Shown here piece by piece: positions 1,555-49,991 of a DNA stretch of 64,000 bases. The stretch is from the IMG/VR virus record IMGVR_UViG_3300044701_003423. One strand, written 5' to 3'. A program made the translations under genes and the position numbers. The first letter of the stretch is position 1; each line of letters starts with the position of its first letter. Source of the stretch: a virus. Below the pieces are notes generated by a model. That model was not told the origin of the DNA and did not search any database. It worked only from the letters and a program-made list of their open reading frames with translations.

Positions 1555-3090
1555 TTAGATGCGACGACGTTGCTTGACGTTGTCAAGAACAGCGAACGAA
1601 CGTGGCTTATGAAGTACAACAGCCAAGTACGAGCTGAACACGCTCTCAAGAGCCAAGCCCTGACGACCAAGGTCAGACTTGTTGAGGAGGTTACCAAGAA
1701 CTGCAAGCTTAACGCGGTCTTCGCTTGAAGGCATGAAGAGTACGCTTTCATAGCCTGGCATTACTGCGCCAGTATATTTGAATGCAGTTGCGCCGGAAGC
1801 GGCCTTGACGACCTTACCAACGAATCCTTCTGAACCAGCCTTACCAGCAGCTTCGCGTGGAGTCATAAAGACCATGAACGCTTCAGCGTCGGCCTGAGCA
1901 GCGATAGAGAGGTCAACGCCCTGTCCATCAACAGTAACGGTAAGTTCGCCGGACATAGCTGGTGAGCTGATGCCGAAGATTGAGGTAGCCTGAACCAAGA
2001 ACTTGACTTTGTCGCCAATCTTGAGTTCTGAACCAACTGAACCAACTGTGAGGTTAGCTGCAGCGATAACTGGAGTTGAAGGAGGTACGCCGTTAGTTCC
2101 TGACACTGGAAGAGCCTTCTGACGAACAGAGTGCTTATAGATAGCAGGAATGAACTTAACTAGACCGCTAACAGACATAATTGCAAATCCACCTTCTTCA
2201 GCGTTGCTGAGGTCTGGTCCACGGATTGCAAAGTTCTGAGCGATGTCGCCGCGCTGAAGGCCGAAGAAAGTCTTACGGAACTCAGCAATTTGAGCTGGAG
2301 TAGCGTGAGCTTCTGAAACTTCACCTGCGTTAGAAACAACTGCAGTGGTTGTATCATCAAGAACTTCTTGGTCAAGAGCCTTGCCCTTGAGGTCCTGAAC
2401 GACGGAGAAGGAGTTTCCATAAGCAGCAAAGTCAGGCGTGACACCACGAGTAGCGCGCTCGCCTTCGCGGATATTGTTCTGAACACCACGAAGCTGACGG
2501 ATAGCTGGGATGCGGCGGTTGCCAAGGAATTTCAAGGGAGTTTCAACGTCGATTTGACCAGCAGCGTCAACATAGTAGTCACCGCCAGCGTAGCCGTCGC
2601 GCTCAAACTGTGTTGAAAGAGCCATAGCAGCGTTGCGCTCATTTTCTTTTTCAATGTCGATACCGTCGAAGAAGCCGCCTGCTTCGTTAGTTAGGCGAAC
2701 CATGTCACCAAGAGTCTTCTTAATACCATAGATTTTGAGCGGTTCAGCAACTTGTTCGTACTGAGCTTGGTCTTCTTGTGGCATGAAGTTTTCAAAGCCA
2801 GCAAGGTCAAGACCTTGAGTAACGATAGCAGTCTGTACTTTATAGAAGTAAACAGGCTGGGTAGCTTTAAGGGTTTTGACGTTCTTCATCAACTTGAGCT
2901 GCTTTTCCTGCGCGCAGATTGCGTACATTACAGGGTCAGCGGAGTCAATAGTAAGGGCGCTGATGCCTGTACGGCCAGCGTTCTGCATACCTTGATAACC
3001 GATGGCGTTGAACGACTTAGCCATGCGCTCAAGGCGTTCTCTAATTTTGGCCAAGTCTTGCTGGCCTACAAACTGATAACCAGTGCTCAT
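1555..3090 (-). CDS. probable major capsid protein
   Basis: 511-aa ORF with a strong SD (agaggag). Visibly GC-richer, biased codon usage versus neighbours, and a strong terminator directly downstream. Size and composition fit an HK97-fold MCP, but there is no motif-level proof. Confidence 0.55.
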   Translation of the reverse strand: MSTGYQFVGQQDLAKIRERLERMAKSFNAIGYQGMQNAGRTGISALTIDSADPVMYAICAQEKQLKLMKNVKTLKATQPVYFYKVQTAIVTQGLDLAGFENFMPQEDQAQYEQVAEPLKIYGIKKTLGDMVRLTNEAGGFFDGIDIEKENERNAAMALSTQFERDGYAGGDYYVDAAGQIDVETPLKFLGNRRIPAIRQLRGVQNNIREGERATRGVTPDFAAYGNSFSVVQDLKGKALDQEVLDDTTTAVVSNAGEVSEAHATPAQIAEFRKTFFGLQRGDIAQNFAIRGPDLSNAEEGGFAIMSVSGLVKFIPAIYKHSVRQKALPVSGTNGVPPSTPVIAAANLTVGSVGSELKIGDKVKFLVQATSIFGISSPAMSGELTVTVDGQGVDLSIAAQADAEAFMVFMTPREAAGKAGSEGFVGKVVKAASGATAFKYTGAVMPGYESVLFMPSSEDRVKLAVLGNLLNKSDLGRQGLALESVFSSYLAVVLHKPRSFAVLDNVKQRRRI

Positions 3091-3390: not shown

Positions 3391-3660
3391 TTAGTCTAGC
3401 TCAACGGTCATATCAACAACAAGGCGCTTTCTATAAATCAACTCTTGAAACTTTTGTACAACTTCTTTTGTTGGTTGTTGAGCGTTTACGGTCAGTAGTC
3501 TTACTGTTGCCGCGTGCTCAGGATGGGCTCTGCCTTCGTCATCATACTCATAAACTACATCGACAATTTCATACTCAAAAACAACGTCGTCAACTTCACA
3601 CCAATCAAGGCGAGTCACTGTCTTGGGAAAGTTATTAAGGATTTTCATAATGTTTTCCAT
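3391..3660 (-). CDS. hypothetical protein
   Basis: 89-aa ORF with GGAGGTG before the ATG. A copy of the conserved upstream motif lies at 3681-3709. Confidence 0.6.
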   Translation of the reverse strand: MENIMKILNNFPKTVTRLDWCEVDDVVFEYEIVDVVYEYDDEGRAHPEHAATVRLLTVNAQQPTKEVVQKFQELIYRKRLVVDMTVELD

Positions 3661-3680
3661 AAATCACCTCCAACATAAGT

Positions 3681-3709
3681 CTTATCGGCAGTTAGCAGAA
3701 AGACTTTAG
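3681..3709 (-). promoter_or_regulatory. conserved bipartite motif CTAAAGT-N16-GATAAG (candidate phage promoter), copy A
   Basis: Minus-strand read: CTAAAGTctttctgctaactgccGATAAG, 20 nt before the ATG at 3660. It directly abuts the stop codon of the upstream gene. Confidence 0.5.
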
Positions 3710-4060
3710 TTAAAAATTAACGTGATAGTCAATAGTGAGTTTATTGGTGTCATAAGGAACTGATATTGTTCCGTATTCTTTTAATTTGATTATAACGCGA
3801 GCATCGTTGGGGTTAGTGTTGAGCTTTTTGACAAACTCTATGTGTTCTGACCTGATGTTGGCATGTTGCTTAGAAACACAGTAATTCTTGTTTTCTGCGC
3901 CAATAATACAAGAAGGCAGACGAATCTGCCCAAATAGAAAAGCTAACATACCTGCCGCAATATAAGTAGTGACCATCAAAAAAGCCAGCGTCCGTGCCGG
4001 CACTCCTTGATTAAACTGAATAAAGGTTGACGCCATTCTTTTGGCGAACAGCAATTCCAC
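3710..4060 (-). CDS. hypothetical membrane protein
   Basis: 116-aa ORF (alternative ATG at 4036). One hydrophobic helix, TLAFLMVTTYIAAGMLAFLFG. Last gene of the coupled operon. Confidence 0.5.
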   Translation of the reverse strand: MELLFAKRMASTFIQFNQGVPARTLAFLMVTTYIAAGMLAFLFGQIRLPSCIIGAENKNYCVSKQHANIRSEHIEFVKKLNTNPNDARVIIKLKEYGTISVPYDTNKLTIDYHVNF

Positions 4061-4334
4061 TGTTACCTGAATTGGACGACTGGCGAAGCTTAGCCGAAAG
4101 ACCTACACGAACTTGCTCAAGAGTGCGGCCCTGAGCAGTAAAACGACGAAGCAATCCGCGCTTACGTGCATTTTCAAAAACCTGAGCTGCTGTAAGTTCG
4201 CGGCTGCCTGCCGCAGCAAGAATTTCAATTGCAACTTCTGTATAAGTAGACGGTGAATTACGACGCATAACTTTCTCCTTAAAATAACCGAGGGCATTCT
4301 CGATTAAGCTTTTAATAACATCTTTAATATTCAT
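4011..4334 (-). CDS. HARE-HTH domain DNA-binding protein
   Basis: STYTEVAIEILAAAGSRELTAAQVFENARKRGLL...GRTLEQVRVGLSAKL...NLYSV fits the HARE-HTH (RNA polymerase delta N-terminal-like) pattern. I chose the ATG at 4334; the track start at 4340 is TTG. Confidence 0.5.
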   Translation of the reverse strand: MNIKDVIKSLIENALGYFKEKVMRRNSPSTYTEVAIEILAAAGSRELTAAQVFENARKRGLLRRFTAQGRTLEQVRVGLSAKLRQSSNSGNSGIAVRQKNGVNLYSV

Positions 4335-4336
4335 AA

Positions 4337-4939
4337 TCAACTCTTTTCTGAAAAATAATTTTCAACGATATCGCATAGTACATGTCCAATTAAAATATGC
4401 ATTTCTTGAATTCTAGCTGTAGTCAAAGAGGGCACCGTAACGCACAAATCAGTATTTTCATACAACTTTCCGCCTTTTCCTCCAGAAAAACCAATCAAAA
4501 TGCATCCTTTACCAGCGGCCTTTTCCATGGCTTTCAAAATATTGAAACTATTTCCAGATGTAGAAATACCAATGACAACGTCGCCTCTTTGAGCCAAAGC
4601 CTCGATTTGCCTTGAAAAGACTTGGTCATATCCATAATCATTAGCGATTGCTGTCAAGATAGATGAGTCAGTCGTCAAGGCAATTGCCGGCAGTCCTTTT
4701 CTCTCACGAGTAAACCTACCAACCAACTCAGCGGCCAAATGCTGAGCGTCGGCGGCGCTTCCTCCATTCCCCATCAAGATAACTTTACAGCCATTCTCTA
4801 AAGCGTCGGTTATGTAGGATGCAATCCTTAAAATAGTAGAGCCACAGTGCTCATAAGTAAGATGAGTTAATGCTTCATGACTATCAAAGGCTTCCTTCAT
4901 CATAGCCTCTTCTTTAAGAATTTGGTCTAGCTCACTCAT
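4337..4939 (-). CDS. gmhA: SIS-domain phosphoheptose isomerase (GmhA family)
   Basis: GNGGSAADAQHLAAELVGRF, GISTSGNS and RIQEMHILIGHVLCDIVE align with E. coli GmhA along the full length. GGAGG lies 5 nt before the ATG. Confidence 0.8.
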   Translation of the reverse strand: MSELDQILKEEAMMKEAFDSHEALTHLTYEHCGSTILRIASYITDALENGCKVILMGNGGSAADAQHLAAELVGRFTRERKGLPAIALTTDSSILTAIANDYGYDQVFSRQIEALAQRGDVVIGISTSGNSFNILKAMEKAAGKGCILIGFSGGKGGKLYENTDLCVTVPSLTTARIQEMHILIGHVLCDIVENYFSEKS

Positions 4940-5328
4940 AGTTCCTCCACTGTAAAGCCATTTTCAATCGTATACATTATTGTTTTTATATCGTTTTGTT
5001 TCAAAATAGCCATACAACCCGAACAGGGGCGGGCGTTTGCCCAACAACCATCTTTAGTCTCTCTATAAGTAACCATCATGAGTTTCTTTTTTTCAGTCTT
5101 AGTTAAACTATTAAGAAAGTCTCTGGCCTTAATTAAAGCATTGACTTCGGCGTGCAGTGTTACGGGCCTGCCATAAGTTTCCTCGTTGCATAGCGGGTGC
5201 GTTTTACTAAGGTAATTACAGCCAGTCGAAATCAGCTTGTCTTTATAAAACAAAGCAGCGCCAAGGTAATAGCGGTAATGCTCCGCCTTCTTTGCTGCTT
5301 TTTGTGCTGGCTTAATTCTTTCTTTCAT
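4936..5328 (-). CDS. divergent cytidine/deoxycytidylate-deaminase-fold zinc deaminase
   Basis: HAEVNAL ... PCSGC zinc-binding motifs in a 130-aa protein. ATGA start/stop overlaps on both sides. Confidence 0.6.
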
Positions 5329-6290
5329 GAAATAACCTTCATAACCTCATCCCAAGTCTTTGTATCTACGGCCAAATTCAATCTAACTTGATTAATAGAC
5401 CCACCGCATTTAGTTCCACAAGTGCCCAAAATCCCCAACTCTCTAAAAGCATCGACAGCGCTGCCATCGGAAATTTGCACCCACGCAAACATCCCCAACC
5501 CTTTGGGATAAGACCATTCATTTTTATGACAAAAATCCTGTAACATTTCTTTTCTTTCGGTCAAGATTCCTTGAATATTTGCCAATTCTTCCGACCATGA
5601 CTCATCAGTTACAAGAGTATTAATAATTTCTGTTGCTTTGACTTGGGTATCGTATCCAACTCCGCCAGACTCAAATTCCATATATTCGCTGATATCTTTT
5701 GCTACTTTTTCATCTTCTACGATTGCCCACCCAAATCTTACTCCGCAGTGGCCTGTCATCTTAGACAGCGTAAAGATAGTCGCTGTTTTGGGTTCTTCGA
5801 CTAAATCAGCAACAGCTTCGTGATAAAGTTTTTCTGAATGAAAATACCATGGCCACAAATATACGCAATCGTACCAAGTTTTTGAATTATATCTCAACAA
5901 TGGAAGAGAGCCGCTTGGATTACTAGGATATGTCAGCAAGTTAAATTCATTATTAAATGCAGAAAATTTAACTCTTGAGTTGTGCATTTGAGATAGCATA
6001 GGAATTCTAAACCAATAAGGCGAAGGTACGCCCGCTTCTTTATGTAAGTGAAAAAAACAACTTACAAGTTGAGATGCTCCGCTTCCAACAACGATTTTGC
6101 TGTTAGGAGTAATCAAATTAGGATGGTATTTGTTATGAAGAGCCTTAATGGCATCTACGACTTCTTGATGCGGTCCTTCTTTGTTATAAGGCATACCCCC
6201 CATAATAGAGGTGACAATTCTATCATGGGGAAGTCTTTGAGTGAAGAGTTCTATAAGAAGGTCTGGGTTGCCAATTCTAAGGTCAATCAT
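5325..6290 (-). CDS. alliinase-family PLP-dependent enzyme (aminotransferase / C-S lyase-like)
   Basis: N-terminal IDLRIGNPD and [21 protein letters not shown] parallel the alliinase/TAA1 motifs (INLDHGDP; FTLSKxTGHAGSRxGWALVKD). Confidence 0.6.
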
Positions 6291-6618
6291 TTGAAGATGT
6301 CCTAGTGTTGTTTTTTTGGAGTTGGTCCATCAAATCATGGACTCTTTTTATTGATTCTGCAATTCTTTTGTGTCTTTCTTCAGTAGAAAGATTTGATTTA
6401 ATAACTAAATCTTTTTCTTTGTTTTTTCTAAAATCAGCCAAACTCACAACATTATTTGTAGTTTCTTGTGGCTGAGAAGGCTGAGTTGAGAGTAATTCTT
6501 CTACTTCCTCAGCCTTGCCATCAATGTTGTATGAATTAAGAGTTTTTTGATTGTTTTGTGCTTTGATGCGGCGCAGGTTTTCTTGTGTTTTCTTAAAGAA
6601 CTCATCATTGATTGTCAT
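6283..6618 (-). CDS. hypothetical protein
   Basis: 111-aa charged, helical ORF. First gene behind motif copy C. It overlaps the next gene by 8 nt. Confidence 0.6.
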
Positions 6619-6656
6619 AAATCCCCCTTTGTATAATAGTCACTGCTTACATAATT

Positions 6657-6685
6657 CTTATCGACAGTCAACAAAAAAACTTTAG
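6657..6685 (-). promoter_or_regulatory. conserved bipartite motif, copy C
   Basis: Minus-strand read: CTAAAGTttttttgttgactgtcGATAAG, 38 nt before the ATG at 6618. It abuts the stop of 6686..7042. Confidence 0.5.
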
Positions 6686-7042
6686 TCAAAGAGTAGCAAA
6701 AAGACCATTTTTGTCAATAAAGACCTCTTTTGCAGTAAGTACAGGATTTCCCGTTGCCGCCTCTACAAACGTAGAGACTTCATAAGGGTTGTAACGCACT
6801 TTAATCATCTTGTTGGCGATTGCAGCAAATTCTTCTGGATTCCACTGACCGCGCACGCCTGCGTGAACATTTTTTTGACGCTCGCGCAAGACTCTGGCGC
6901 GGCCCGCTTGGCTGACTTTAAGCTGGCAATCAGTCAACTTGATGCTGTCTACGTAGGCAATCACTCGACCCTTCATTGGGCCTTCCATGGCTTTGACGCT
7001 GAAGCAGCCTTTATGAAGATTTTTGTAAACAAAGACTTTCAT
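6686..7042 (-). CDS. conserved phage hypothetical protein
   Basis: 118-aa ORF with GGGGGTG as SD. The MKVFVYKNLHKGCFSV ... KNVHAGVRG pattern recurs in many phage small proteins of unknown function. Confidence 0.6.
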   Translation of the reverse strand: MKVFVYKNLHKGCFSVKAMEGPMKGRVIAYVDSIKLTDCQLKVSQAGRARVLRERQKNVHAGVRGQWNPEEFAAIANKMIKVRYNPYEVSTFVEAATGNPVLTAKEVFIDKNGLFATL

Positions 7043-7061
7043 AGTTCACCCCCATGATAAT

Positions 7062-7090
7062 CTTATCGACACTAGGACAAATAACTTTAG
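7062..7090 (-). promoter_or_regulatory. conserved bipartite motif, copy B
   Basis: Minus-strand read: CTAAAGTtatttgtcctagtgtcGATAAG, 19 nt before the ATG at 7042. It sits immediately downstream of a terminator. Confidence 0.55.
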
Positions 7091-7092
7091 GT

Positions 7093-7127
7093 AAAAAATA
7101 AACCCGCTCAATAAAAAATTGAACGGG
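7093..7127 (-). terminator. rho-independent terminator
   Basis: Stem cccgctcaat / attgaacggg (9 of 10 bp), then a T-rich run (tttatttttt) on the minus strand. It lies after the stop of 7176..8057. Confidence 0.65.
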
Positions 7128-7175
7128 CCGCAAGCCTCCGAAGCATATACAAAATACCTCGGTAAAACTTATAAG

Positions 7176-8057
7176 TCAAGCTCCAATAAAGCCAACCTTA
7201 ATTTGCTGACCCATAGAAGCCTTAATAGCGGACTCTTGCTCTAGTCTCTTCTTCTCTAGTGCTTGAATACGGTTTAGCAAGAAATTTGGCCCCGGCAACG
7301 ATGCCGCCTGACTAACTCCATCAATACTTACGTTGACTGAACTGTACGGGAACAACACAGGAATAACATCTGTAAGCAAGCGAATTGAAGCAACCGTAAT
7401 CACGAGGTCTACTACGATTGCAGGAACTCTGCCTTCTGGAAAGCCTGTCAAGACTTCTACAGAAATCATATTAGGACGGAAAGCTTGTGGAACGTAGCCA
7501 GCCATAAAGCTAAATACGGTTCCGTCGCCTCCGCGTGCGGTTGTTTTGATGGTACCCAAGTCAGCCAATACGTTGATTCTTCTGTTTCTGTAAGAAATCC
7601 AAGAAGGCGGTAGCGTGAACTCGTTAATAGGCTGGTCGTTCATTGCGTGAGAAAACTTGAGTTTCATTGACAAAATATCTGTCACAGGAAACTGTTTTAC
7701 TTTTAATCCGCTAAAATTACTAGCAAACATACCTTCAGTATAGTCGAATACCAAAGTTTGCTCACATGGAGATAGAAACATCCCCATACTCATTTCAATT
7801 TCGTTGATAGCCGAAGTTAAATACTGTCCAATGAAAGCGTCATCAAGTTCATCGAGTTGGTCTTGGTCTAAAAGACGCTTAAGCCCAAACAATGCAAACT
7901 TACGAACATCGTGAACATTTGGCAACGGAAGAAAGCGTTTGAATGCTCCCTCAATTGTCTCCATGTCTGACTTACAGTGAATTGGATATGTATTATAATC
8001 GCCTCTATAGGGCTGCAATCCTGCGGGGTTATATCCAAGTGGGTATTGGTCTGACAT
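7176..8057 (-). CDS. hypothetical virion protein (possible head-tail adaptor)
   Basis: 293-aa ORF in the structural operon. The adaptor role is a guess from position only. Confidence 0.35.
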   Translation of the reverse strand: MSDQYPLGYNPAGLQPYRGDYNTYPIHCKSDMETIEGAFKRFLPLPNVHDVRKFALFGLKRLLDQDQLDELDDAFIGQYLTSAINEIEMSMGMFLSPCEQTLVFDYTEGMFASNFSGLKVKQFPVTDILSMKLKFSHAMNDQPINEFTLPPSWISYRNRRINVLADLGTIKTTARGGDGTVFSFMAGYVPQAFRPNMISVEVLTGFPEGRVPAIVVDLVITVASIRLLTDVIPVLFPYSSVNVSIDGVSQAASLPGPNFLLNRIQALEKKRLEQESAIKASMGQQIKVGFIGA

Positions 8058-8058
8058 T

Positions 8059-8475
8059 TTAGCAACCCGCCCCTGTTAGAATTTTCTTAATCATATAAGG
8101 ACTATTGATGGTTTGAACAATTGTTGTACCGTTATAGATATTAAACTGTACGGTTCCCGATACGAGAAGATTTACCTGCTCAGCAGTTAAATTGATACTC
8201 CAAATGCTTCTGTCCATAGCCATAGGAAGAGCCTGAACTTCAAAGGTCTGAGATGCTGATGCTTGTCCAAGTTTAGCAACTTTAGCTCGTTGAAACTTTG
8301 CCTTGACGACTTGGCCAGTTGGCACCATAAAACGTCTTAGGGGGAGCGCATCTGAAATAAGAACTTGAAACGACAGTCTTACAGGAGAGTCTTGAGTTAC
8401 TTCCCAATACTCTAGTGGCGCAATATCGTTGGGTTCGTCAAAAAGGTCTAGGGGTTTTACTTGAAAGTAATACAT
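8059..8475 (-). CDS. hypothetical virion protein
   Basis: 138-aa ORF tightly packed between structural genes. Confidence 0.45.
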   Translation of the reverse strand: MYYFQVKPLDLFDEPNDIAPLEYWEVTQDSPVRLSFQVLISDALPLRRFMVPTGQVVKAKFQRAKVAKLGQASASQTFEVQALPMAMDRSIWSINLTAEQVNLLVSGTVQFNIYNGTTIVQTINSPYMIKKILTGAGC

Positions 8476-8476
8476 G

Positions 8477-11053
8477 TTATTTTTGGCCTTTGAGCTTGTG
8501 TTTTACATGTTCAAGTAGCATTTTACGCTCTTTTGTAGCTTCTGGAGAAGTATCTACCTTAACAGTATCAAGAGCCGTACTGAGTTTATCCATAATTGTT
8601 TTGTGCTCTTCGGGGGTTGCTTTCTTAGTGGCCTTTGAGGGCTTGCCTTCTCCGAGGATTAGCTTTTTCTCAAGGACTTCGTCTGAGCGCATAAGGGTGT
8701 CGGCATCCTTGCGGGTCTTATCTTGAGATGCTGCACGAGCACGGCGGTTAATTTTTGCATCAACGGAGGTGCCTTCTACAAACCCACGAGTAGGGTCTAA
8801 CATAAGCTCGCCTCTGTCAATTTGGTCAACAAGTTCTCTTGTCTTGTTTGTAAGGTTCTTCATAGAACCAGTTAGCCAAATTTCCTTTTCTTTGCCGTCT
8901 TTACCTTTGACCTTGACCTTTTGAACAATTTCTTTAGAGGGGTCGTCAACCGCTTGAGTTCTTGGAATTTCTGGCTTTTTGTATTTTTTTCCTCTTTTTT
9001 CAGACTCTATTCTATTTTCTTCCTCGGTAGATGCCGTTTTTTGATGAGTTGGCAAACCAGCTCTGCGTCTGTAGTAATTCTCTAAGGCAGTTGGCTCATA
9101 CTCTTCTGCTGTTTGCGCCTGTTTCTTATAACCGTGTTTGACGTTTATGTCACCCCAATGGGTGTCCATGTCTTTTTGCCAATCAGAAAGTGATTGCTCT
9201 TTAGCCTTAAACTCTTTGCGAGGGTCAATTGACTCCATATCTTTGCCGTATTGATATAGATGACCAACTTCATGAACGAGGGAATCTGGATTGCCAATAT
9301 GCTCAACGACATTGTCATGAAAATTTGGCTTATCAATTACTTTGCCAGATGCAGCTACCTTACCGGGAGCGCGTTTGGCTTCTAGTCCAAACCTTCTTTT
9401 AATCATATCGGTTAAAGCAGCAATTTGCTTTTCTCTGCGTGGCGAGCCGGCTGATGTTTTCCATCCTCCAAACACGGCTTCGCGCTGCTTACGAACATTC
9501 TTGCCTTTTTCTAATTCTTCTTTTGGCTTTTGAGTTTTGGCTTTGTCTGCTTGTTGTTTTTCACGCTCAAGCATTGCCCAAATGTGCATTTTGCTTTCTG
9601 GACGCAACTCTTGCTCTTCCTGAGCGGCGGACTCTCTCTGTTCTTGGAGAGGGTCGTGCCACTTAGGAAGTTGAGTCTTCTTATCTTCTTTGAAATAACC
9701 TGATTTGTTTAGTTCACTTTTTTTTTTATCAGCGGCTTTGGCTACGTTTTCAGCGCCTTCTTTAATCTTCTCCAAGTCAGCATCTGCCTTAAGCTGTTTA
9801 GCCTGCGGCATTCCCTTGGTAGGCTTCTCTTGCTCTTTGACCTTCATGTCGGCTTTTTCAAGGTCTTCTGACTTTTTAGCACTATCAACAGAAGCATGGC
9901 AAACGGCCCATGGATTGACTTTGTCGCCTGACTTCTTTTTAACAGCGAGTACGCAACGCTCAAACTTAGCTTTCTTGGAATCAGACTTAGCTAGTTCTGG
10001 ACGTGGACCTTCCCAGTTACTCTTAACTCTTTGAGCCAAAGCACGCTCGTTTTTAGCTGCTTTTGGTTGTTGAGCAACCAACTCTTTAGGGGCTGCCTTT
10101 GTATCGGTGGAAATGACTTTCTTGTCTTTCATGCTAATAACGTCGCCTTTATCCAACTCTTCAGTTGGTTGGCCGTGTTCATATGACAAGTAATGAGCGA
10201 TATCGGACAAATACTGTCTAGCAACAGTAATCTTTGAATCAACCCAATCTTCAAGGTCTTCGGACTCAACAACCATCTTGTCGAGTGCTTGAGCATACTC
10301 CATGATGTCTTTGAGGTCTTTTTTAGCCATGCGACTTTCAGACTCGTCTGCTTTAGACATAGCCATAGATGCAGGTGCTGCAGGTACAGGTGGGCGCATC
10401 ATTGGGGGAGTTGCTCCGCCAGCGCCGGGGGTTCCTGTGCCGTTCATTTTAGCTAGTTTCTCTTTGCGGAGAGCGGCAAGAATCTTAGAACGCATGTCAG
10501 GTTTAGCTTCGGACAATACTTCATTGACTTTGGCGGGACCCTTGATTGCCTCAACAGCTTCTTTGACATCTGATTTTTTCAAACTCATGGGAACGCTCGC
10601 CTCCGTCCAATCTTTATTTGCGGTCATATCTTTTGGCATTGGTATTTCTGCGTGTACTGGAGTTGCATGAAACAACGCCACTACATTTGGAAGACCGCTC
10701 GCCGAGTTCTTAAAGCCTAAATATCCTTTTTCTTTCAACAACTTAAAGTAAGCATCCTGCATACTTCCAATGGGCTTTTGTAGCCATTGTTGCTTAGCCT
10801 GCTGTTGATTTTCAAGGTCATTAGCAATATCAATGATTTTATCATGTCCTGGGTGCTTAACTATGTATTTTGACTTAGCTCCACCTGTCACAACTGACTC
10901 TGTTGGCGTGCCTTCTTCATAAAAGTAGACGCGGGGGTGAATGGGCTTACCGTGTTTAGCTTCGGGGGAATGCTTACCCGCAGTTCCTTGAAACTCTGGG
11001 TCTAAGGCAGTCAGACCGGAAGTTGTGGAGAAATGAACTAAGTATGGATTCAT
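8477..11053 (-). CDS. large Lys/Glu-rich virion protein with HExxH metallopeptidase motif
   Basis: 858 aa. LVHEVGHLYQY is a zincin HExxH. The long low-complexity charged regions are typical of internal/ejected virion proteins. Confidence 0.5.
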   Translation of the reverse strand: MNPYLVHFSTTSGLTALDPEFQGTAGKHSPEAKHGKPIHPRVYFYEEGTPTESVVTGGAKSKYIVKHPGHDKIIDIANDLENQQQAKQQWLQKPIGSMQDAYFKLLKEKGYLGFKNSASGLPNVVALFHATPVHAEIPMPKDMTANKDWTEASVPMSLKKSDVKEAVEAIKGPAKVNEVLSEAKPDMRSKILAALRKEKLAKMNGTGTPGAGGATPPMMRPPVPAAPASMAMSKADESESRMAKKDLKDIMEYAQALDKMVVESEDLEDWVDSKITVARQYLSDIAHYLSYEHGQPTEELDKGDVISMKDKKVISTDTKAAPKELVAQQPKAAKNERALAQRVKSNWEGPRPELAKSDSKKAKFERCVLAVKKKSGDKVNPWAVCHASVDSAKKSEDLEKADMKVKEQEKPTKGMPQAKQLKADADLEKIKEGAENVAKAADKKKSELNKSGYFKEDKKTQLPKWHDPLQEQRESAAQEEQELRPESKMHIWAMLEREKQQADKAKTQKPKEELEKGKNVRKQREAVFGGWKTSAGSPRREKQIAALTDMIKRRFGLEAKRAPGKVAASGKVIDKPNFHDNVVEHIGNPDSLVHEVGHLYQYGKDMESIDPRKEFKAKEQSLSDWQKDMDTHWGDINVKHGYKKQAQTAEEYEPTALENYYRRRAGLPTHQKTASTEEENRIESEKRGKKYKKPEIPRTQAVDDPSKEIVQKVKVKGKDGKEKEIWLTGSMKNLTNKTRELVDQIDRGELMLDPTRGFVEGTSVDAKINRRARAASQDKTRKDADTLMRSDEVLEKKLILGEGKPSKATKKATPEEHKTIMDKLSTALDTVKVDTSPEATKERKMLLEHVKHKLKGQK

Positions 11054-11310
11054 TCTTCCTCGTCTTTCACAAGTTTAAGTTTTGCCTTGCTCTTTTGAGC
11101 CGTAACGGCTTTGTCCCATTTTATCCTATCGACAATCTTTGATTGTTTGTTTAGGGCTTTTCTTATTTTTTCATTACGGTCGGCGTCTGGGGGATTATCC
11201 CAAAGCTCTTTGGGCAACTGCCTCTTAACTTCTTCAGAAAACTGCCTTAGCCTAAAGTGGCTATATGGGTAAACATTGTCTGGCAATTCATCGTCTTTGT
11301 TATCAGACAT
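11050..11310 (-). CDS. hypothetical protein
   Basis: 86-aa ORF with a 4-nt overlap with the downstream gene. Confidence 0.5.
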   Translation of the reverse strand: MSDNKDDELPDNVYPYSHFRLRQFSEEVKRQLPKELWDNPPDADRNEKIRKALNKQSKIVDRIKWDKAVTAQKSKAKLKLVKDEEE

Positions 11311-11313
11311 TGA

Positions 11314-12564
11314 TTAACCCAGTTTATTTTCTTCGATGCGACGAGTCGTGTCGCCCTTATCTACCAAATCTCTGCTTTTATCCCAGTGCATTTGAGCCTG
11401 CTGCTTGTGAAAGCTCACAAGGGAAGACTCCATCTTGGGATTTTGTTTAATCTTTTCTTGATGACGCCAATAAGCATCAAGGTGCTCCTGAGCATTAAAC
11501 TTGGCGTGCTCTGGGTGACTGAAATGACTATAAATAGTCTTTTTCTCTTTTTTGGTGCCGCCCATAGAGAAAGGCTTGGCATATTGGCCATTAGTGACTT
11601 TGGGTGCAGACCAAAGAGCTTTAACAAGCCGACTTTTAACTAACTGAAGTTTTGGTTTTTTGGGTTCGTCTATTTGGTCTGCGCTGACATAAACGGCACT
11701 ATGGCCTTTTGATTCCGCCGAGTCCAAAGCTCTGTCGATTCTTGGCTCGTCCAAGATGCCATAGTTTTCTAGGCTTGGTAGCTTATCGACGTGAACATGA
11801 ACGCCTACTAGATTGTCATGGCTTGGATGTGTTTTGAGATAAAGCGGGATACCAACAGGGGACTCATCTTCAGACATAAGGAGTTTGGGCTGAATAGACG
11901 ACTCTTGTTTAGGAGCTTTATCTACAACTTTTGACTTAAGCTGCGCAATAATTTCTTTGTTTTTGAGTTGTCTTTGTTTTTTAATATTTTCTTTTTGTTG
12001 TTCAGGAGTTACAGCTTTTTCCATATCTTGCAACCTTTTGGCCTGCTTACTGTATTGAGCAATATGGGGCAACATAGAGGCATCTTCTGCGGAAGGTTCT
12101 CTGTATGGCTTTGTAATATTGACTTTAAATCCAGCTTCTTGTTTGAGTCTGTTCCAGTTTTTAAAGGCTGGCATCGACTGCATTACGTCTGAGTGTAATG
12201 TGCCATGAGACTTAACGGCTTCCCTTAGAGCAACGTAATTGAGTCTGTTGCCTTGGAAGTTCGGATGAGTTGCTGCTGCATAGACAGTCATTGGCTCATT
12301 TTCATTCTGTCTTGCTGCCAACAAAGTAGACACACCTGATTGATGGGGGTCATGGTGCATTGAGACAAGATGGCGAGCATTTGTCCCATCGTCTGACTCA
12401 AAGTGATGCACATAAACACTGCCGAAACGTTCGTGAGGAACGCGAGTCGTGCTAACATGGGTTTCGTTTGGCCTCATGCCATCGTACTTGGCAATTTTAA
12501 GAACGCCTTCTGATGGTTCGTTGGAGACTAAGACTTTTTCGAGTTTTTTGTCTTTAACTTCCAT
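11314..12564 (-). CDS. hypothetical virion protein
   Basis: 416-aa ORF in the same operon. No recognised motif. Confidence 0.5.
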   Translation of the reverse strand: MEVKDKKLEKVLVSNEPSEGVLKIAKYDGMRPNETHVSTTRVPHERFGSVYVHHFESDDGTNARHLVSMHHDPHQSGVSTLLAARQNENEPMTVYAAATHPNFQGNRLNYVALREAVKSHGTLHSDVMQSMPAFKNWNRLKQEAGFKVNITKPYREPSAEDASMLPHIAQYSKQAKRLQDMEKAVTPEQQKENIKKQRQLKNKEIIAQLKSKVVDKAPKQESSIQPKLLMSEDESPVGIPLYLKTHPSHDNLVGVHVHVDKLPSLENYGILDEPRIDRALDSAESKGHSAVYVSADQIDEPKKPKLQLVKSRLVKALWSAPKVTNGQYAKPFSMGGTKKEKKTIYSHFSHPEHAKFNAQEHLDAYWRHQEKIKQNPKMESSLVSFHKQQAQMHWDKSRDLVDKGDTTRRIEENKLG

Positions 12565-16282: not shown

Positions 16283-16729
16283 TTATTCCTGCAATGATTC
16301 AATTTTATCACAATCCTCTAAAATGTCAACGTGTTTATCGACTGTTATACCTAACTCCTTTAAATAATTAACATTTGATTCTTTGTGGTCTTCTTTGTAA
16401 ACTACTCTCTCAATTCCGCATGCAGCTATTAGCTTGCAACATTCGGGGCATGGAGCCAAAGTAATATAAATAGTAGCATTTTTAGTTTGTTTTGCTGTAT
16501 TTTTTAATAAAGCGTCCATTTCAGCGTGAATCATATATGGTTGTTTTGATTGGCAAAAATAATCGTCTATCTTCTTTTTAGGAACCGGCTTATTGTGTCC
16601 ATCTGAAATTTTATGGCCATCTTTAACAACAATAGCGCCGACTTGTCGCTTTACATCTGGAGAGCGTTTAGCGACAAGTTCAGCTAATTCCATAAAATGT
16701 TGTTCATCCTTCGCACGCGACACATTCAC
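16283..16729 (-). CDS. dCMP deaminase
   Basis: HAEMDALL ... PCPECCKLIAACGIERVVY is the canonical ComEB/dCMP deaminase signature. The start is uncertain (GTG 16729 or ATG 16693). Confidence 0.8.
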   Translation of the reverse strand: MNVSRAKDEQHFMELAELVAKRSPDVKRQVGAIVVKDGHKISDGHNKPVPKKKIDDYFCQSKQPYMIHAEMDALLKNTAKQTKNATIYITLAPCPECCKLIAACGIERVVYKEDHKESNVNYLKELGITVDKHVDILEDCDKIESLQE

Positions 16730-18401: not shown

Positions 18402-19373
18402 TTAAAACTTAATCTTAGACCAATCAATATGACCCTTGGAATATGCTGTACTTTTTAAAGCAAAAAAGTCAGAGTGCTCATTGCCGGAGCTTAACACATC
18501 AAACCAACTTGTAATAGTTTTTACCGACTCAGCATCAATATTTTTCCAGTTGGTCTTTAGTCCTAAATCTTGTAGCTTTGTGTTGGCTCTATATCGGATG
18601 TACGCCTTGAGTTGTTTAGGATTAATTCCTTGAATTTCAGCTCCATCAAATACAGCATCAATATAATCATCTTCTAGCTCGACAACGTCTCTGGCTGCCT
18701 GATAGATGGTCTTCTTAAATTCGTCCGTCCAAATTTCTGGATGTTCTGCCATCAAAGTTCTAAACAACCAGCAGCCTGCATCGGAATGCAGCCCCTCGTC
18801 CCTGACGGACCAGCTAACAATATTTGCTACGCCTTTAAGTTTATTAAATCTTGAAAAGTTCATTAGGACGGCAAAAGAACTAAAAAGCGATACCCCCTCA
18901 GTGAAGGCTGAAAAAATAGCCAAGGAACGCGCTTTACCCTGAAGGGTTTCTGTGTCACTAAGAACAGCGGCGAGTTTATCTTTTTTTGCCTTCATGGCGG
19001 GATTCTTCAAAAACTCTTCATATTCAGACAAAGGAAGCCCTAATGAAGTTGAAAGATGATCATAAGCTGCAATATGGATACTTTCAAAAGCTCCGTTGGT
19101 GGCGGCCATCTGTTGCACCTCTGGATGCTTAAACCATTTGGCTACGCTTGATGACCAGTAATCTTCCGCATCAATCTCAATAGTTGTAAAAAGCCGCAAA
19201 ATCCTAATAACAACTTTCTTTTCATCTTCTGTCAAATTTTCATTATAGTCTTTGATGTCTGGCCCCATATTGACTTCGGTCCAAAGCCAGTGAGCCTGTT
19301 GTTGTTTAAGAAAAAAATCATATGCTTCTGGATATTTAAATGGTTTGTAATATAGCCGTGGTTCTACGAGCAT
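18402..19373 (-). CDS. nrdB: ribonucleotide reductase small subunit
   Basis: Di-iron ligand motifs FESIHIAAY, FTEGVSLFSSF and DEGLHSD. I chose the ATG at 19373 because AAGGAG lies 8 nt upstream; the track start is GTG 19382. Confidence 0.85.
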   Translation of the reverse strand: MLVEPRLYYKPFKYPEAYDFFLKQQQAHWLWTEVNMGPDIKDYNENLTEDEKKVVIRILRLFTTIEIDAEDYWSSSVAKWFKHPEVQQMAATNGAFESIHIAAYDHLSTSLGLPLSEYEEFLKNPAMKAKKDKLAAVLSDTETLQGKARSLAIFSAFTEGVSLFSSFAVLMNFSRFNKLKGVANIVSWSVRDEGLHSDAGCWLFRTLMAEHPEIWTDEFKKTIYQAARDVVELEDDYIDAVFDGAEIQGINPKQLKAYIRYRANTKLQDLGLKTNWKNIDAESVKTITSWFDVLSSGNEHSDFFALKSTAYSKGHIDWSKIKF

Positions 19374-19431
19374 GTTGCACACTCCTTGGCTGCCGTTAGA
19401 AACTATCGTATTTTAACCAATCAGCCAAGAG

Positions 19432-19980
19432 TTATTTTATATTATATTTTTCTGAAATTTTAATAACTTGCACTATTACTTGAAGTTGTTCATAAAGGTC
19501 TTCTATTGTTCCATTATTATCAATAACAAAATCCCAACCTTTGTAATCGTTCAGTGCATTTTCTGACACGTGAGAGGCTCTTTCTTCTTGCGGGCGAGTT
19601 TTTCTGTCCACTTTAACTAGAAAAAAACCATTTGCTTTTAAAGCTTCGGCTTCGTTTGGGAATCTTACGTCTGTTACATAAAAATTATTTACAAAAGCCT
19701 CATTGGAAAGATAACAACCTTGTCTTTCTGCTTGATAAATTCTATTTAAACAGTGGTCTACCCAAATATTTTCATTTATAGAACGGCCCCAATCTGTTCC
19801 AACCCAAGTTAATAACTTAGTATCCTTAAATGTGTCAATACAAGCTATTTCATGAATGGATTTCATAATCTCATAAATTGGTTGAGCAAACTTAAAGATT
19901 TGCCCTCCATACTGCCCTTGAAGATATTCCGCTGATGTGTCTTTTCCTGAGCGAGCCTTGTAACCAAAAGCAATTTTCAT
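19432..19980 (-). CDS. deoxynucleoside monophosphate kinase
   Basis: P-loop GYKARSGKDT, then GTDWGRS...IWV and VTDVRFPNEAEAL, as in phage dNMP kinases. Confidence 0.65.
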   Translation of the reverse strand: MKIAFGYKARSGKDTSAEYLQGQYGGQIFKFAQPIYEIMKSIHEIACIDTFKDTKLLTWVGTDWGRSINENIWVDHCLNRIYQAERQGCYLSNEAFVNNFYVTDVRFPNEAEALKANGFFLVKVDRKTRPQEERASHVSENALNDYKGWDFVIDNNGTIEDLYEQLQVIVQVIKISEKYNIK

Positions 19981-25914: not shown

Positions 25915-26628
25915 ATGTTAAGAAGTGTAGATGGATTGTTGACAATTGAAGCAAGTAAAACTAAAAGTGATTTAATTATTCCGGCAAGCGATGTATCGGT
26001 TGTTAATGTGCCGGAAAGTCCAAGCGAGTCAGAAAAACTTTTTAAAGCAATTTACAACGTACCTACTGACCGCCATGTGTGCTTGGTTTTGGTTAGGCAT
26101 TCAAAAGGCGAATATTTAAAGGCATTGGGAAATGTTACAAAAATTAAACACTTGGATTACATGGACGAAGTTCACATTACTTACCAGAAATCTTCCAAGC
26201 GTGCAGGTAGCTTTACCCACTTGGGAGAGTCTGGCTTTTTGTTTTATAAAGGAAGTCAGCCAGTTGTAGAAAATACAAATTGGTTTAGAAATGATATGAA
26301 TGGACTTAATGCGAGTAATCATTGGGATTTGGGAGTCTATTCCGTTTCTGACGACAAACTAAAAGAAAAAGGAGATAGGACAATTTTTCCTAAGTTTGCA
26401 TGGGAACTAGGACTGCTCCTGATGACTTTGGCAACTCCCTTGCAGCACAAAAGAATTGTTTGGACATTGCCATGGGACGAAAACCTTTTACAATTTTCCA
26501 GTGAATGGAAGATTCGTTTGCATTTGGTTACAACATCGGACGTTGATGCGTACGATGCTCTAACTGCGTACGAAAAAATTTCCAATAAAGAAGATAAAAA
26601 AATTAACAAAGTGGAGAGCTTATCATGA
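25915..26628 (+). CDS. hypothetical protein, possibly a degenerate N6/N4 DNA methyltransferase fold
   Basis: SDLIIPASD sits where DLIxTDPPY would be. FLFYKG and FPKFAWELGLLLMTL resemble conserved MTase blocks, but the SAM-binding FxGxG is absent. ATG 25915 was preferred over 25894. Confidence 0.3.
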   Translation: MLRSVDGLLTIEASKTKSDLIIPASDVSVVNVPESPSESEKLFKAIYNVPTDRHVCLVLVRHSKGEYLKALGNVTKIKHLDYMDEVHITYQKSSKRAGSFTHLGESGFLFYKGSQPVVENTNWFRNDMNGLNASNHWDLGVYSVSDDKLKEKGDRTIFPKFAWELGLLLMTLATPLQHKRIVWTLPWDENLLQFSSEWKIRLHLVTTSDVDAYDALTAYEKISNKEDKKINKVESLS

Positions 26629-28238
26629 AACAATTAGTCGTAGGTAAACAAGCCCGCGATATGGCGGTAGATGCTTTGCAGGAAATCGCAGAGGCTGTCG
26701 GGTCAACTTTAGGGCCAGCGGGTTTACCGGTTATATTTGACAAGCCAAATCAAATGGGTGAGATGCAACCAACCGTCACCAAAGACGGGGTAACCACCAT
26801 CAGCTGGATGCAGTTTACAGACCCAATCAAACACGCGGTGCATTACTTTGCTAAACAGGCCGCTAATCATTCTGTTTTGGAGTCTGGGGACGGCACAACT
26901 TCAACTCTTGTCCTTAGCGCGGCTTTGGCTAAAGCAATCAAAGAAAAAAATGCAGCCGCTCCGCAAGCTTATGCTCGTCAGGTTGAACATCACATTGAGG
27001 ATTGTATCGACTACATTCGAGAAAATGCAGTTAAAGACCCAGAAGCGGTCGCCATGGTAGCTAAAACGTCATCAAATGGCGATATGGAAATTGTTAATTC
27101 CGTTATGGAAGCTCTTAATAAGACCAGCGTTCATGGCACTATTCTCGTTGAAAAGAATGTAGCAGCTAAAGAGCGCTATAAAGTTGAACTACAAGATGGG
27201 TACAATGCCGGCCGTGGCTACAATCATCATCCCACCTTGGCTATGAGTTGTTCGGACAAGGTAGGCGAAAATCTTCCTTTTCAAATGGAAAAACCCTATA
27301 TTTTTCTGTATAACGGCGAGATTCATTCACTAGAGCAGCTCAACGCGGCTGTAACTGATTTGGGCATCAAGACAAATAACAGATTTACTCTTTTAGTTTT
27401 TGCTTACGACGTGGCCGAAAGCGTCTGTAATGAGTTGATCCCTGTAAATCGTAAGTATGCTGGCAAAGTTAGTATTTTTGTTTCCAAGGTACGCCAGACT
27501 GCCGAATTCAATAGCGGCATGCAAATTCTCATGGACATCGCTGCTATCACTAACGCTGAAATCTTTGACGGTGCTTCTTATGGTCGTGCTAAGGTAGAAA
27601 ACTTGGGTACTTGCAATCATGTAGTTGTTCACCCTTATAAGACAGTTCTACATGGTCGCAACAAGAATCACTTTATCCCCAAGCGTGCTCAACAAAATAT
27701 CAACGCTATGGAAGCTGCTCGTTCTGCTTTTGATAAGGACGTAATCGCTGCCCGTAATGCTGAGTTGACTGAGGGGCTAGTTACTATCGTCGTTGGCGCT
27801 GGCCATGCTGCTGCAGTACAAGAGCGAGCTGACCGAGTCGATGATGCTATTAAAGCGGCTCAGGCGGCAAGAAGAGGTGGCATTGTACCTGGGTGTGGCG
27901 TCATGTACCAACAGGCCGCATTGGCTTGTGGATTGCCTGAAAACCTTGTTCAAGCCCTATCTGCTGTCACCGATAAAGTGTTCGAGAATCTTGGCGCCAA
28001 AGTCCCGCCCCGTAAAGAGAACGAGACTTACGCTGTACAGGAAGACGGCTCTGTTAAGGTAGGACACTACAAGGACTTACAAGTTTGCGACGCGGCGGAA
28101 ACTTGCATGAGCGTATTGCGCAATGCTTGTGAGCTTGCTGCGATGTGTAGTACAACCGCTTGCTTTAGTTTGACTGCAGATTTGCAAAAGATGGATGAGT
28201 TGCGTAAATTAAAGTCTCTTATTACGGAGACAAGATAA
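26625..28238 (+). CDS. groEL: GroEL-like (Cpn60 family) chaperonin
   Basis: 537 aa. AVGSTLGPAGLPVIFDK...PTVTKDGVTT...ESGDGTTSTLVLSAALAKAI aligns with the GroEL N-terminal equatorial domain, including the GDGTT nucleotide motif. Confidence 0.8.
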   Translation: MKQLVVGKQARDMAVDALQEIAEAVGSTLGPAGLPVIFDKPNQMGEMQPTVTKDGVTTISWMQFTDPIKHAVHYFAKQAANHSVLESGDGTTSTLVLSAALAKAIKEKNAAAPQAYARQVEHHIEDCIDYIRENAVKDPEAVAMVAKTSSNGDMEIVNSVMEALNKTSVHGTILVEKNVAAKERYKVELQDGYNAGRGYNHHPTLAMSCSDKVGENLPFQMEKPYIFLYNGEIHSLEQLNAAVTDLGIKTNNRFTLLVFAYDVAESVCNELIPVNRKYAGKVSIFVSKVRQTAEFNSGMQILMDIAAITNAEIFDGASYGRAKVENLGTCNHVVVHPYKTVLHGRNKNHFIPKRAQQNINAMEAARSAFDKDVIAARNAELTEGLVTIVVGAGHAAAVQERADRVDDAIKAAQAARRGGIVPGCGVMYQQAALACGLPENLVQALSAVTDKVFENLGAKVPPRKENETYAVQEDGSVKVGHYKDLQVCDAAETCMSVLRNACELAAMCSTTACFSLTADLQKMDELRKLKSLITETR

Positions 28239-29976: not shown

Positions 29977-30948
29977 ATGGATTTAAGAATTTTATGTGTT
30001 GGGGATATTCACTTTAGACATTCATCTATTGTAGAAAATGACTTACTAATCGAAAAGCTAAAAGAAAAAGTTTGGGAGTCCTCTCCCGATATTGTCGTTT
30101 TTATGGGAGACTTGCTCCACAATCACGGAACAACCTACGTTCAACCATTTAATCAAGTCCTAAAACTCTTAAAGGAAATTGGCTCAATCTGTACGGTATA
30201 TGTTCTTGTAGGAAACCATGACTACATCAACAACTCTCAGTTTTTGTCAGACAACCATTTTTTAAAGGCATTTGGCGGCCTAGACCGCGTCAAGATTGTA
30301 GATAGAGTAGTTAGCCACTATGGTTTAATTTTGATGCCCTACGTGCCTGCAGGAAGGTTTGTAGAGGCACTTGATACGTGTGAAGGCTGGAAGAGCGCAA
30401 AGGCTATTTTTTGCCATCAAGACTTTTACGGAGTTGAGCTAAACGGCATCAAGATGGAACATGGCGACAAATGGCCAGAAGACTTCCCCCTAGTCATTAG
30501 TGGCCATATTCATGAGCATCAGTGGCTAGAAAAGAACATTTGTTATGTTGGCACTCCCTACATGACGACCTTTGCCGAAACTGATGAGAAGGGCCTGAGT
30601 CTGTTTGAATTCGGTGAATCTGTAAAGCACACCCGAATTGACCTTGGTATGCCCAAAAAGCTGACTGTTAAGTTGACTCTTGACCAAGTTAAAAAGTTTA
30701 AAGTTCCAGAAAATACTCATCTGCGCCTTATGCTGGAAGGAGAGGCGTCTGCCCTGTCTGCATTTAAAAAAACAAAAGGATATTCAGAACTCGCACAAAA
30801 AAATGTCAAAATTGTATTATGTCCAACTGAAAACGAACTTTCCTTAAATGCGACCATTGTCAAAAAAACCTATTTGGAACTCCTAAAGGAAATGGTAGGA
30901 AGTGACGATACAGAGTTGATGAGCATTTTTAACGAAGCTCTTGCTTGA
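29977..30948 (+). CDS. sbcD: SbcD/Mre11-family nuclease
   Basis: CVGDIHF, FMGDLLH, VGNHDY and SGHIHEH phosphoesterase motifs, with a Rad50/SbcC-like partner downstream. Confidence 0.8.
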   Translation: MDLRILCVGDIHFRHSSIVENDLLIEKLKEKVWESSPDIVVFMGDLLHNHGTTYVQPFNQVLKLLKEIGSICTVYVLVGNHDYINNSQFLSDNHFLKAFGGLDRVKIVDRVVSHYGLILMPYVPAGRFVEALDTCEGWKSAKAIFCHQDFYGVELNGIKMEHGDKWPEDFPLVISGHIHEHQWLEKNICYVGTPYMTTFAETDEKGLSLFEFGESVKHTRIDLGMPKKLTVKLTLDQVKKFKVPENTHLRLMLEGEASALSAFKKTKGYSELAQKNVKIVLCPTENELSLNATIVKKTYLELLKEMVGSDDTELMSIFNEALA

Positions 30949-30955
30949 GGATAGC

Positions 30956-49971: not shown

Positions 49972-49991
49972 TCTTATAATGGAGGTGAATT

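Follow-up and report, generated by a model that had tools for sequence, protein, structure and literature searches.

A probable accessory island encoding GmhA, a second deaminase and an alliinase-like enzyme in a phage known from metagenomes

A 64,000 nt stretch of viral DNA (IMG/VR record IMGVR_UViG_3300044701_003423; this whole stretch is termed the window) carries six open reading frames (ORFs) on its minus strand between positions 6618 and 3710, in a block that lies between two copies of a promoter-like motif. Among the encoded proteins are GmhA, a divergent pyrimidine deaminase and a pyridoxal phosphate (PLP) enzyme related to alliinases. The initial annotation of this DNA had read the block as a linked operon whose products form one biosynthetic route, with DNA modification as its foremost purpose. 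Comparison with related phages suggests that the block is probably a separately promoted, recombination-prone accessory island, made up of auxiliary metabolic genes (AMGs) or morons that act independently of each other.

Like the moron or accessory islands of other tailed phages, the block has its own promoter-like element, a gene content that varies among close relatives and an uneven pattern of divergence. Its position between structural modules, in this case tail-fibre and capsid genes, is also typical. Unlike them, it carries mainly metabolic enzymes rather than genes for lysogenic conversion or exclusion. The genes of an island wedged in this way between tail-fibre and capsid modules would be transcribed together without being steps of one pathway.

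Organization of the block and its variation among relatives

The first gene of the block encodes a highly charged and polar 111 aa protein (unk111; 6283-6618). It is followed by genes for a compact fold-type-I PLP enzyme of the TAA1/alliinase family (321 aa; 5325-6290), a divergent zinc-dependent pyrimidine deaminase of the cytidine deaminase (CDA) fold that is the second deaminase of this genome (130 aa; 4936-5328), the sedoheptulose-7-phosphate isomerase GmhA (200 aa; 4337-4939), a small winged-helix protein that is predicted to bind DNA and is possibly of the HARE-HTH type (4011-4340), and a single-pass membrane protein (3710-4060), all on the minus strand. The winged-helix protein is 109 aa long when read from TTG, and the gene callers used for its relatives start at the ATG at 4334 to give 107 aa. 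Similarly, the membrane protein could start at a GTG, for a length of 116 aa, or at the ATG at 4036, for 108 aa. In gene order, the first three junctions are overlaps of 8, 4 and 4 nt, the fourth is an overlap of 4 nt or a 2 nt gap, and at the last the membrane-protein ORF overlaps the winged-helix gene by 26-50 nt. The coordinates, overlaps and 2 nt gap bear out the six ORFs and the junctions that had been described for this region.

Tight coupling of starts and stops is the norm for this genome and is not special to the block, because 26 of the 64 same-strand junctions outside it also overlap and 41 of the 64 are no more than 10 nt apart. Co-transcription and translational coupling of the island genes would therefore follow from the dense packing of the genome as a whole.

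The fate of the block in related phages is more informative. We compared it with nine other members of a clade whose capsid proteins are 97-98% identical (L001, L002/L004, L017, L018, L019, L112, L113 and L114). All nine retain the order unk111, alliinase-like gene, deaminase, winged-helix gene and membrane-protein gene, followed by the capsid gene. Against the 97-98% identity of the capsids, the island proteins diverge unevenly, with identities of 53-66% for the alliinase-like enzyme, 40-74% for the membrane protein and 78-94% for the deaminase. Such uneven divergence is typical of a recombination-prone accessory region. GmhA is present in only part of the clade. It is found in the window, L001, L002/L004, L019 and L114. 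In L018, L112 and L113 it is cleanly missing, and the winged-helix gene comes directly after the deaminase gene. L113, which lacks GmhA, carries the alliinase-like allele closest to that of the window (75%). In L017, the deaminase gene is directly followed by a gene for a D-beta-D-heptose-7-phosphate kinase of the HldA/HldE type (PDB entry 4e84, E=1e-14), within which the contig ends. GmhA is thus gained or lost as a cassette at the junction between the deaminase and winged-helix genes.

Mosaicism is also apparent elsewhere near the capsid gene, where an 89 aa protein is 37% identical and parts of an 858 aa protein are 44-57% identical between genomes whose capsids match at 97-98%. This reflects either a recent exchange of the capsid module or very fast evolution of the island.

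Outside the clade, the two enzymes that accompany GmhA are found apart. IMG/VR contig 3300022752_004974 is a distant relative that shares ribonucleotide reductase (RNR; 68% identity), ClpP and several small genes with the window. It carries the alliinase-like gene (50% identity) and the deaminase gene (55% identity) about 17 kb from each other, the former in an early-gene region that includes ThyX, where it follows a DUF2201/VWA gene, and the latter 4 kb upstream of the RNR small subunit gene. Alliinase-like homologs with 28-51% identity are neighboured by DUF2201/AAA/ThyX genes, by phosphoribosyltransferase and flavoprotein genes, by PhoH/SLT genes or by tail-fibre-like genes, and none of these remote homologs has an adjacent deaminase, SIS or HTH gene. 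In a neighbour-joining tree, the capsid-adjacent and DUF2201-adjacent alliinase-like alleles form sister clades, which points to one relocation event rather than to repeated assembly of an operon. The idea of a linked operon does not survive this survey of gene neighbourhoods, given that GmhA is optional within the clade and that the alliinase-like and deaminase genes stand 17 kb apart in the distant relative. Indeed, the block genes largely fail to co-occur in other phages, an outcome that the initial annotation had itself named as counting against its proposal.

In the 149 kb distant relative (L005), genes for ThyX (Thy1; 6826-7707) and for a ThyA-family protein (Thymidylat_synt; 18699-19469) both lie within 12 kb of the alliinase-like gene. 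In phages, an additional gene of the ThyA type can encode a pyrimidine hydroxymethylase.

The promoter-like element that precedes the block is one of a series. The sequence CTAAAGT-N12-TGYCGATAAGA is present in 5 copies in the window, compared with 0.09 expected, and its core occurs 7 times where 0.52 occurrences are expected. This excess indicates that the motif copy previously claimed to lie upstream of the block is real. That copy, termed copy C (CTAAAGT-N12-TGTCGATAAGAATTATG; 6656-6685, minus strand), is immediately upstream of unk111. Another copy (3680-3709, minus strand) comes right after the block, where it marks the downstream end and precedes the gene for the 89 aa protein (3391-3660). 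The others are located before an L5-gp82-like gene (7061-7090, minus strand), before a helicase-like gene (37661-37690, plus strand) and after the gene at 49547-49927 in a region of small genes (49943-49972, plus strand). Every copy is at or just past the end of one gene and upstream of the next. With copies in front of the helicase-like gene at 37.7 kb and the small-gene region at 49.9 kb, the motif does not qualify as a signal for structural genes. It fits the sigma-70 consensus poorly and may represent a phage-specific promoter class common to accessory and replication genes. The block therefore carries its own promoter-like element, of a class that is not restricted to structural genes.

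On its upstream side, the block is separated from a tail-fibre-like gene (phrog_772; 7176-8057) by the L5 gp82-family gene (6686-7042, minus strand; PF25735, E=2.5e-41). This gene forms a mini-unit with its own motif copy between the block and a strong, intrinsic-terminator-like hairpin (7129-7101, minus strand). It is present in L017 and L112 and absent from L018, L019 and L113. The capsid gene (phrog_752; 1555-3090) is located downstream of the block.

GmhA and heptose metabolism

The SIS protein of the block is predicted to be an intact and authentic GmhA. It matches SIS_2 with E=3e-27 (95.7 bits versus a cutoff of 27), reaches 206.6 bits with the equivalog model TIGR00441, just under its cutoff of 209.45, and matches NF010546 at 7e-63 (211.9 bits versus a cutoff of 276). 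The top matches among PDB sequences are all GmhA proteins, led by that of Burkholderia pseudomallei (2xbl; 3e-55, 190 bits). In the alignment with 2xbl, AADAQHLAAELVGRF stands opposite AADAQHIAGEFVSRF and IQEMHILIGHVLC opposite IQEGHLVLGHIVC, and the QH..E and QE.H...GH segments are conserved. These segments include what we take, from the B. pseudomallei and Escherichia coli structures, to be the metal-binding and catalytic His, Glu, Gln and His positions.

The same fold is used by DiaA, a close structural relative of GmhA, and the block protein also scores well against DiaA (E=2e-41 with PDB 2yva; 5e-44 with NF008138). Since the gene stands alone in the window as far as the heptose pathway is concerned, its product might conceivably work like DiaA, by binding host DnaA or a phage replication protein, rather than as an isomerase. 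We consider this highly improbable. The score to authentic GmhA is some 45 bits higher than that to DiaA (145 bits), and the aligned active-site segments are conserved. Furthermore, L017 has a heptose-7-phosphate kinase at the position that GmhA occupies in other clade members, and other phage GmhA proteins are encoded within heptose modules.

Such modules are found on three unrelated viral contigs (L011-L013), in which GmhA is part of a full set of nucleoside diphosphate (NDP)-heptose genes. Its neighbours are an NTP-transferase/HAD fusion and a GHMP kinase in L012, a PfkB kinase in L013, and a GHMP kinase, a GT1 glycosyltransferase and a mannosyltransferase in L011. GmhA therefore belongs functionally with heptose activation and not with the PLP enzyme or the deaminase. 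In contrast to these contigs, the window has GmhA without kinase, phosphatase, nucleotidyltransferase or glycosyltransferase partners. No heptose kinase, GmhB, nucleotidyltransferase or glycosyltransferase was found among the approximately 50 window ORFs scanned, including those of the block, and when all ORFs of L011-L013 were compared with the window by BLAST, only GmhA matched. The module of L012, a 159 kb contig, is a complete GDP-heptose-type set (7929-11359) that is followed directly by a gene for GTP cyclohydrolase I, the first enzyme of the 7-deazaguanine and folate routes.

As an alternative to DNA modification, it had been suggested that the block rewires the host lipopolysaccharide (LPS) heptose pathway. 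The L017 kinase and the NDP-heptose modules favour this suggestion for GmhA alone. GmhA would supplement the first committed step of the host ADP-heptose route to the LPS inner core, acting together with the host enzymes HldE, GmhB and HldD, and might thereby sustain or change the synthesis of envelope glycans in the infected cell.

The gene gmhA is listed among the well-characterised phage AMGs (PMC9238414). Like phage GmhA proteins of this kind and the cellular GmhAs of ADP- and GDP-heptose synthesis, the protein of the window has a full-length SIS fold and keeps the active-site segments. Its similarity to cellular GmhAs (50-69% identity) matches that which they show among themselves, and what distinguishes it is its presence or absence as a cassette within its own clade. 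The nearest cellular proteins come from Bacteroidota, Campylobacterota, Acidobacteriota, Proteobacteria and archaeal metagenome-assembled genomes. Attempts to deduce a host or gene donor from them were uninformative, because the matches are spread over so many phyla.

The PLP enzyme, the deaminase and the small proteins

Profile searches confirmed the enzyme identities first proposed for the block, in that Alliinase_C, dCMP_cyt_deam_1 and SIS_2 all score above their Pfam cutoffs. For the PLP enzyme, Alliinase_C (PF04864) is matched with E=1.1e-29 (103.9 bits versus a cutoff of 22), and Aminotran_1_2 is matched as well. The single sequence finds plant TAA1 in the PDB (3bwn) at E=1.8e-17. A profile built from 24 homologs extends this match to 2e-53 over its full length (profile positions 3-325) and finds alliinase at 2e-43, whereas the next aminotransferase scores only 3e-11. 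Residues N124, D141, Y144, K177, R185 and R303 are invariant in the 24 homologs. They correspond to the PLP Lys and to the Asn, Asp-x-x-Tyr, phosphate Arg and carboxylate Arg ligands of fold-type-I enzymes. K177 is aligned with the Lys of the TAA1 FSKITGH motif, and a 13-residue segment is aligned with FSKITGHAGSRIGW of TAA1. These features mark the protein as a true member of the TAA1/alliinase clade. A role as a sugar aminotransferase was considered and rejected, because the protein belongs to the amino-acid class I/II superfamily (Aminotran_1_2/Alliinase_C).

Like plant TAA1/TAR tryptophan aminotransferases and alliinases, the enzyme gives a full-length profile match and conserves the PLP Lys motif and ligands. 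Unlike alliinases, it is a compact protein of about 320 aa with no EGF-like N-terminal domain, and it differs from both groups of plant proteins in being viral and found only in metagenomes. An exhaustive profile search recovered 347 clusters (50% identity) at E≤1e-30. The top ~130 clusters are compact, with lengths of roughly 230-375 aa, mostly about 290-375 aa, and proteins of plant size appear from about 1e-46. Ten clusters that we sampled are all metagenomic, come from contigs of up to 169-173 kb and carry only automatic names, such as ‘L-tryptophan--pyruvate aminotransferase’. All nine of the genomic contexts sampled are phage-like, and their neighbouring genes differ.

No homolog of this family was detected at E≤1e-5 in 50,697 deposited phage genomes (tblastn). 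A scan of GTDB representative genomes likewise returned no relative, although as a pattern scan with two conserved peptides only it is not proof of absence. A literature search yielded no paper that joins alliinase, phage and DNA modification, and to our knowledge the compact TAA1/alliinase-like family is not among the described AMGs. The prokaryotic TAA1 homologs invoked in discussions of how auxin synthesis arose in plants reach only E~1e-8 and 25% identity (PMC4754409). The phage family matches plant TAA1 far more strongly than these do, both as a single sequence and as a profile.

The deaminase matches dCMP_cyt_deam_1 with E=4.7e-10 (39.7 bits versus a cutoff of 25), has the zinc motifs HAE...PCSGC, which are invariant across its family, and also matches phrog_174, dCMP deaminase, at 1e-13. 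Its closest sequence matches are the dCMP deaminases of S-TIM5 and Streptococcus mutans. An AlphaFold2 (AF2) model with a predicted local distance difference test (pLDDT) score of 83 was compared with known structures by using Foldseek. Tetrameric cytidine deaminases (2e-6; template-modelling (TM) score 0.64) and dCMP deaminases (2e-5; TM 0.63) are about equally close, with probability 1.00 for both groups and TM values of 0.6-0.65. The protein is a small enzyme of the CDA/dCMP-deaminase type, and not a toxin or an APOBEC-like deaminase.

Like the dCMP deaminases of phage T4 (Cd) and cyanophage S-TIM5 (dCD) and the tetrameric cytidine deaminases, the protein has the CDA fold with HAE and PCxxC zinc ligands. 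Unlike them, it carries an additional stretch of about 18 residues that separates its zinc motifs, as well as an invariant segment, KTHPLC...TYGRPVT, that is not seen in the matched structures. It shares only 23% identity with the canonical dCMP deaminase that this genome also encodes (16283-16729), in a nucleotide block with both RNR subunits and a dNMP kinase.

The gene identities given in the initial annotation were otherwise essentially right as well, apart from the assignment of the fifth protein to the HARE-HTH subtype. The winged-helix fold itself is upheld by an AF2 model, which has pLDDT values of about 90 at residues 30-109 and the topology of three helices followed by a beta-hairpin (H-H-H-beta-hairpin). 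The match to Pfam HARE-HTH (PF05066) has E=0.0095 and 16.7 bits, below the cutoff of 25.9. A weak match to this model is given by 17 of the 21 family members (best E 0.0011), and no other family recurs. Foldseek finds only generic winged-helix domains (Fur, FoxO, KAT6A-WH and TubR; best E=0.015, none ≤0.001). We conclude that the predicted fold is that of a winged helix and that the HARE subtype is possible. The N-terminal helix is poorly conserved. The family is restricted to this clade, and profile searches for distant viral relatives recovered only three close contigs. A match among PDB sequences to a designer pentatricopeptide repeat protein was rejected as a repeat or composition artefact built from many weak summed repeats.

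The remaining proteins, unk111 and the membrane protein, have no match in Pfam, PHROG, NCBIfam or PADLOC. unk111 consists of 33% charged and 35% N/Q/S/T residues and is 56-86% conserved upstream of the alliinase-like gene in clade members. The membrane protein has one hydrophobic helix (residues 25-43; Kyte-Doolittle hydropathy, KD(19)=2.12) and a C-terminal domain of about 70 aa. In clade members it is conserved, although fast-evolving. A reading of the block as a defence or anti-defence cassette is unsupported, as eight proteins, those of the block included, gave no match to PADLOC defence-system models at E≤0.01.

Functional readings and significance

If the block is an accessory island, each gene would contribute to infection on its own. 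The deaminase might add a C-to-U conversion on a form of pyrimidine nucleoside or nucleotide that the canonical dCMP deaminase does not handle, and could in this way feed dTTP synthesis for a genome with 59% A+T. The PLP enzyme, in which the carboxylate-binding Arg and all PLP ligands are conserved, would transaminate or beta-eliminate a free alpha-amino acid. The winged-helix protein may act as a small DNA-binding regulator and the membrane protein as an envelope-directed accessory factor.

Several observations weigh against this interpretation. The five-gene order is kept in all nine clade members, even where alliinase identity is down to 53%, and both the alliinase-like gene and the deaminase gene persist in the more distant relative, which makes a functional link possible. 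Partner genes could lie outside the window, which covers about 64 kb of a genome of probably 120-160 kb. Moreover, the activities of GmhA, the deaminase and the PLP enzyme are predictions from their sequences, and the benefit that an orphan GmhA would bring to the phage is inferred.

The retained gene order can be taken to mean that unk111, the PLP enzyme, the deaminase, the winged-helix protein and the membrane protein form one functional module, which might for example make or sense an amino-acid-derived pyrimidine metabolite or base, with GmhA or the HldE-type kinase as an unrelated insert. The core order with its overlapping stops and starts would then have been maintained while the alliinase-like sequences drifted to 53-66% identity, and the deaminase and winged-helix families are found in this lineage only. 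We regard this possibility as unlikely, albeit one to be taken seriously. Its two enzymes are encoded 17 kb apart and in different neighbourhoods in the very relative that has both, and the remote alliinase-like homologs lack deaminase and HTH neighbours. Searches with Pfam, PHROG and NCBIfam revealed no transferase in the block capable of linking a product to DNA or a nucleotide, and TAA1/alliinase-type enzymes act on free alpha-amino acids. In addition, because the clade is phylogenetically narrow, with capsids that are 97-98% identical, synteny within it is expected by descent, and retention of gene order may simply reflect this shared ancestry.

A bolder version holds that the conserved core is a new phage system, in which the PLP enzyme and the deaminase would jointly process a modified nucleotide or a conjugate of a pyrimidine with an amino acid, with the product sensed by the DNA binder, and, separately, that the compact clade is the long-missing close non-eukaryotic relative of plant TAA/alliinase enzymes. 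We view this as a long shot.

The route originally envisaged for DNA modification fares worse. There, the combined action of GmhA, PLP enzyme and deaminase would yield an amino-sugar or a modified nucleotide to be attached to phage DNA, and the HARE-HTH protein would read or target the modification. Comparative genomics has tied HARE-HTH domains to DNA-modification contexts, and the HTH family of the block matches the model weakly, yet consistently. The phage also probably modifies its DNA, as judged by a Mom-family gene, though this gene is 25 kb away. Such a route is nevertheless contradicted by the three clade members that lack GmhA and keep all the other genes, and by the lack of any signature hypermodification gene: no glycosyltransferase, nucleotidyltransferase, 5-hydroxymethyldeoxyuridine (5-hmdU) DNA kinase, aGPT-Pplase or hydroxymethylase is present among the block and the ~50 window ORFs scanned. 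Likewise, the PLP enzyme is of the amino-acid type and not a sugar aminotransferase, and the HARE-HTH match falls below the Pfam threshold, with Foldseek returning generic winged-helix domains only. Together these findings leave the route with very little likelihood.

Comparison with known systems leads in the same direction. The defining genes of thymidine hypermodification clusters encode a 5-hmdU DNA kinase, the amino-acid:DNA transferase aGPT-Pplase and a nearby dUMP hydroxymethylase, and their PLP enzymes are TrpB-like decarboxylases (PMC8989533). The block resembles these clusters, which are found in phages M6, ViI, PaMx11, SP10 and PhiW-14, in having a PLP enzyme among other phage genes. 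It differs from them in that its PLP enzyme is a TAA1-like protein of fold type I and in that none of their defining genes occurs in the scanned ORFs.

An independent and better-founded candidate for DNA (adenine) modification is the Mom-family gene itself (30941-31582, plus strand; PF25680, E=1.1e-23, 84.5 bits versus a cutoff of 27.1). It overlaps by 4-8 nt with its upstream neighbour, which encodes an Mre11-like phosphoesterase (29977-30948), and with its downstream neighbour, which encodes a Rad50/SbcC-like ATPase (31579-33750).

The window belongs to a large tailed phage of freshwater type that is known only from metagenomes. A megablast search of the region against the 50,697 deposited phage records gave no match, and for the capsid protein the only matches, at about 22% identity, were in Myxococcus phage Mx1 and Bacteroides phage SJC03. 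No tRNA was found in a tRNA scan. Besides a lysozyme, the window encodes a GroEL/Cpn60-like chaperonin (26625-28238, plus strand), a Pol III alpha-type replicase with a PHP domain (34082-37672, plus strand), two ClpP-like proteases (43747-44718 and 52907-53578, both plus strand) and a 537 aa protein with a C-terminal NUDIX domain (53776-55389, minus strand). This unusual gene set is consistent with a large, poorly sampled phage lineage.

A pathway for DNA modification in the block would matter greatly if it were true, and the comparative evidence mostly removes that motivation. The island itself is of an ordinary kind, and GmhA belongs to a known class of phage AMGs. The accessory island offers a natural experiment, since at one junction, among phages with near-identical capsids, there is no heptose gene, GmhA alone or an HldE-type kinase in its place. 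These swaps lend themselves to testing how a phage benefits when it manipulates heptose and LPS synthesis in its host. What is new is a large clade of compact TAA1/alliinase-like enzymes that appear to be phage-borne. This clade does not save the idea of a pathway, and it deserves follow-up in its own right; a phylogeny that includes the compact clade might bear on the origin of plant TAA enzymes and auxin biosynthesis.

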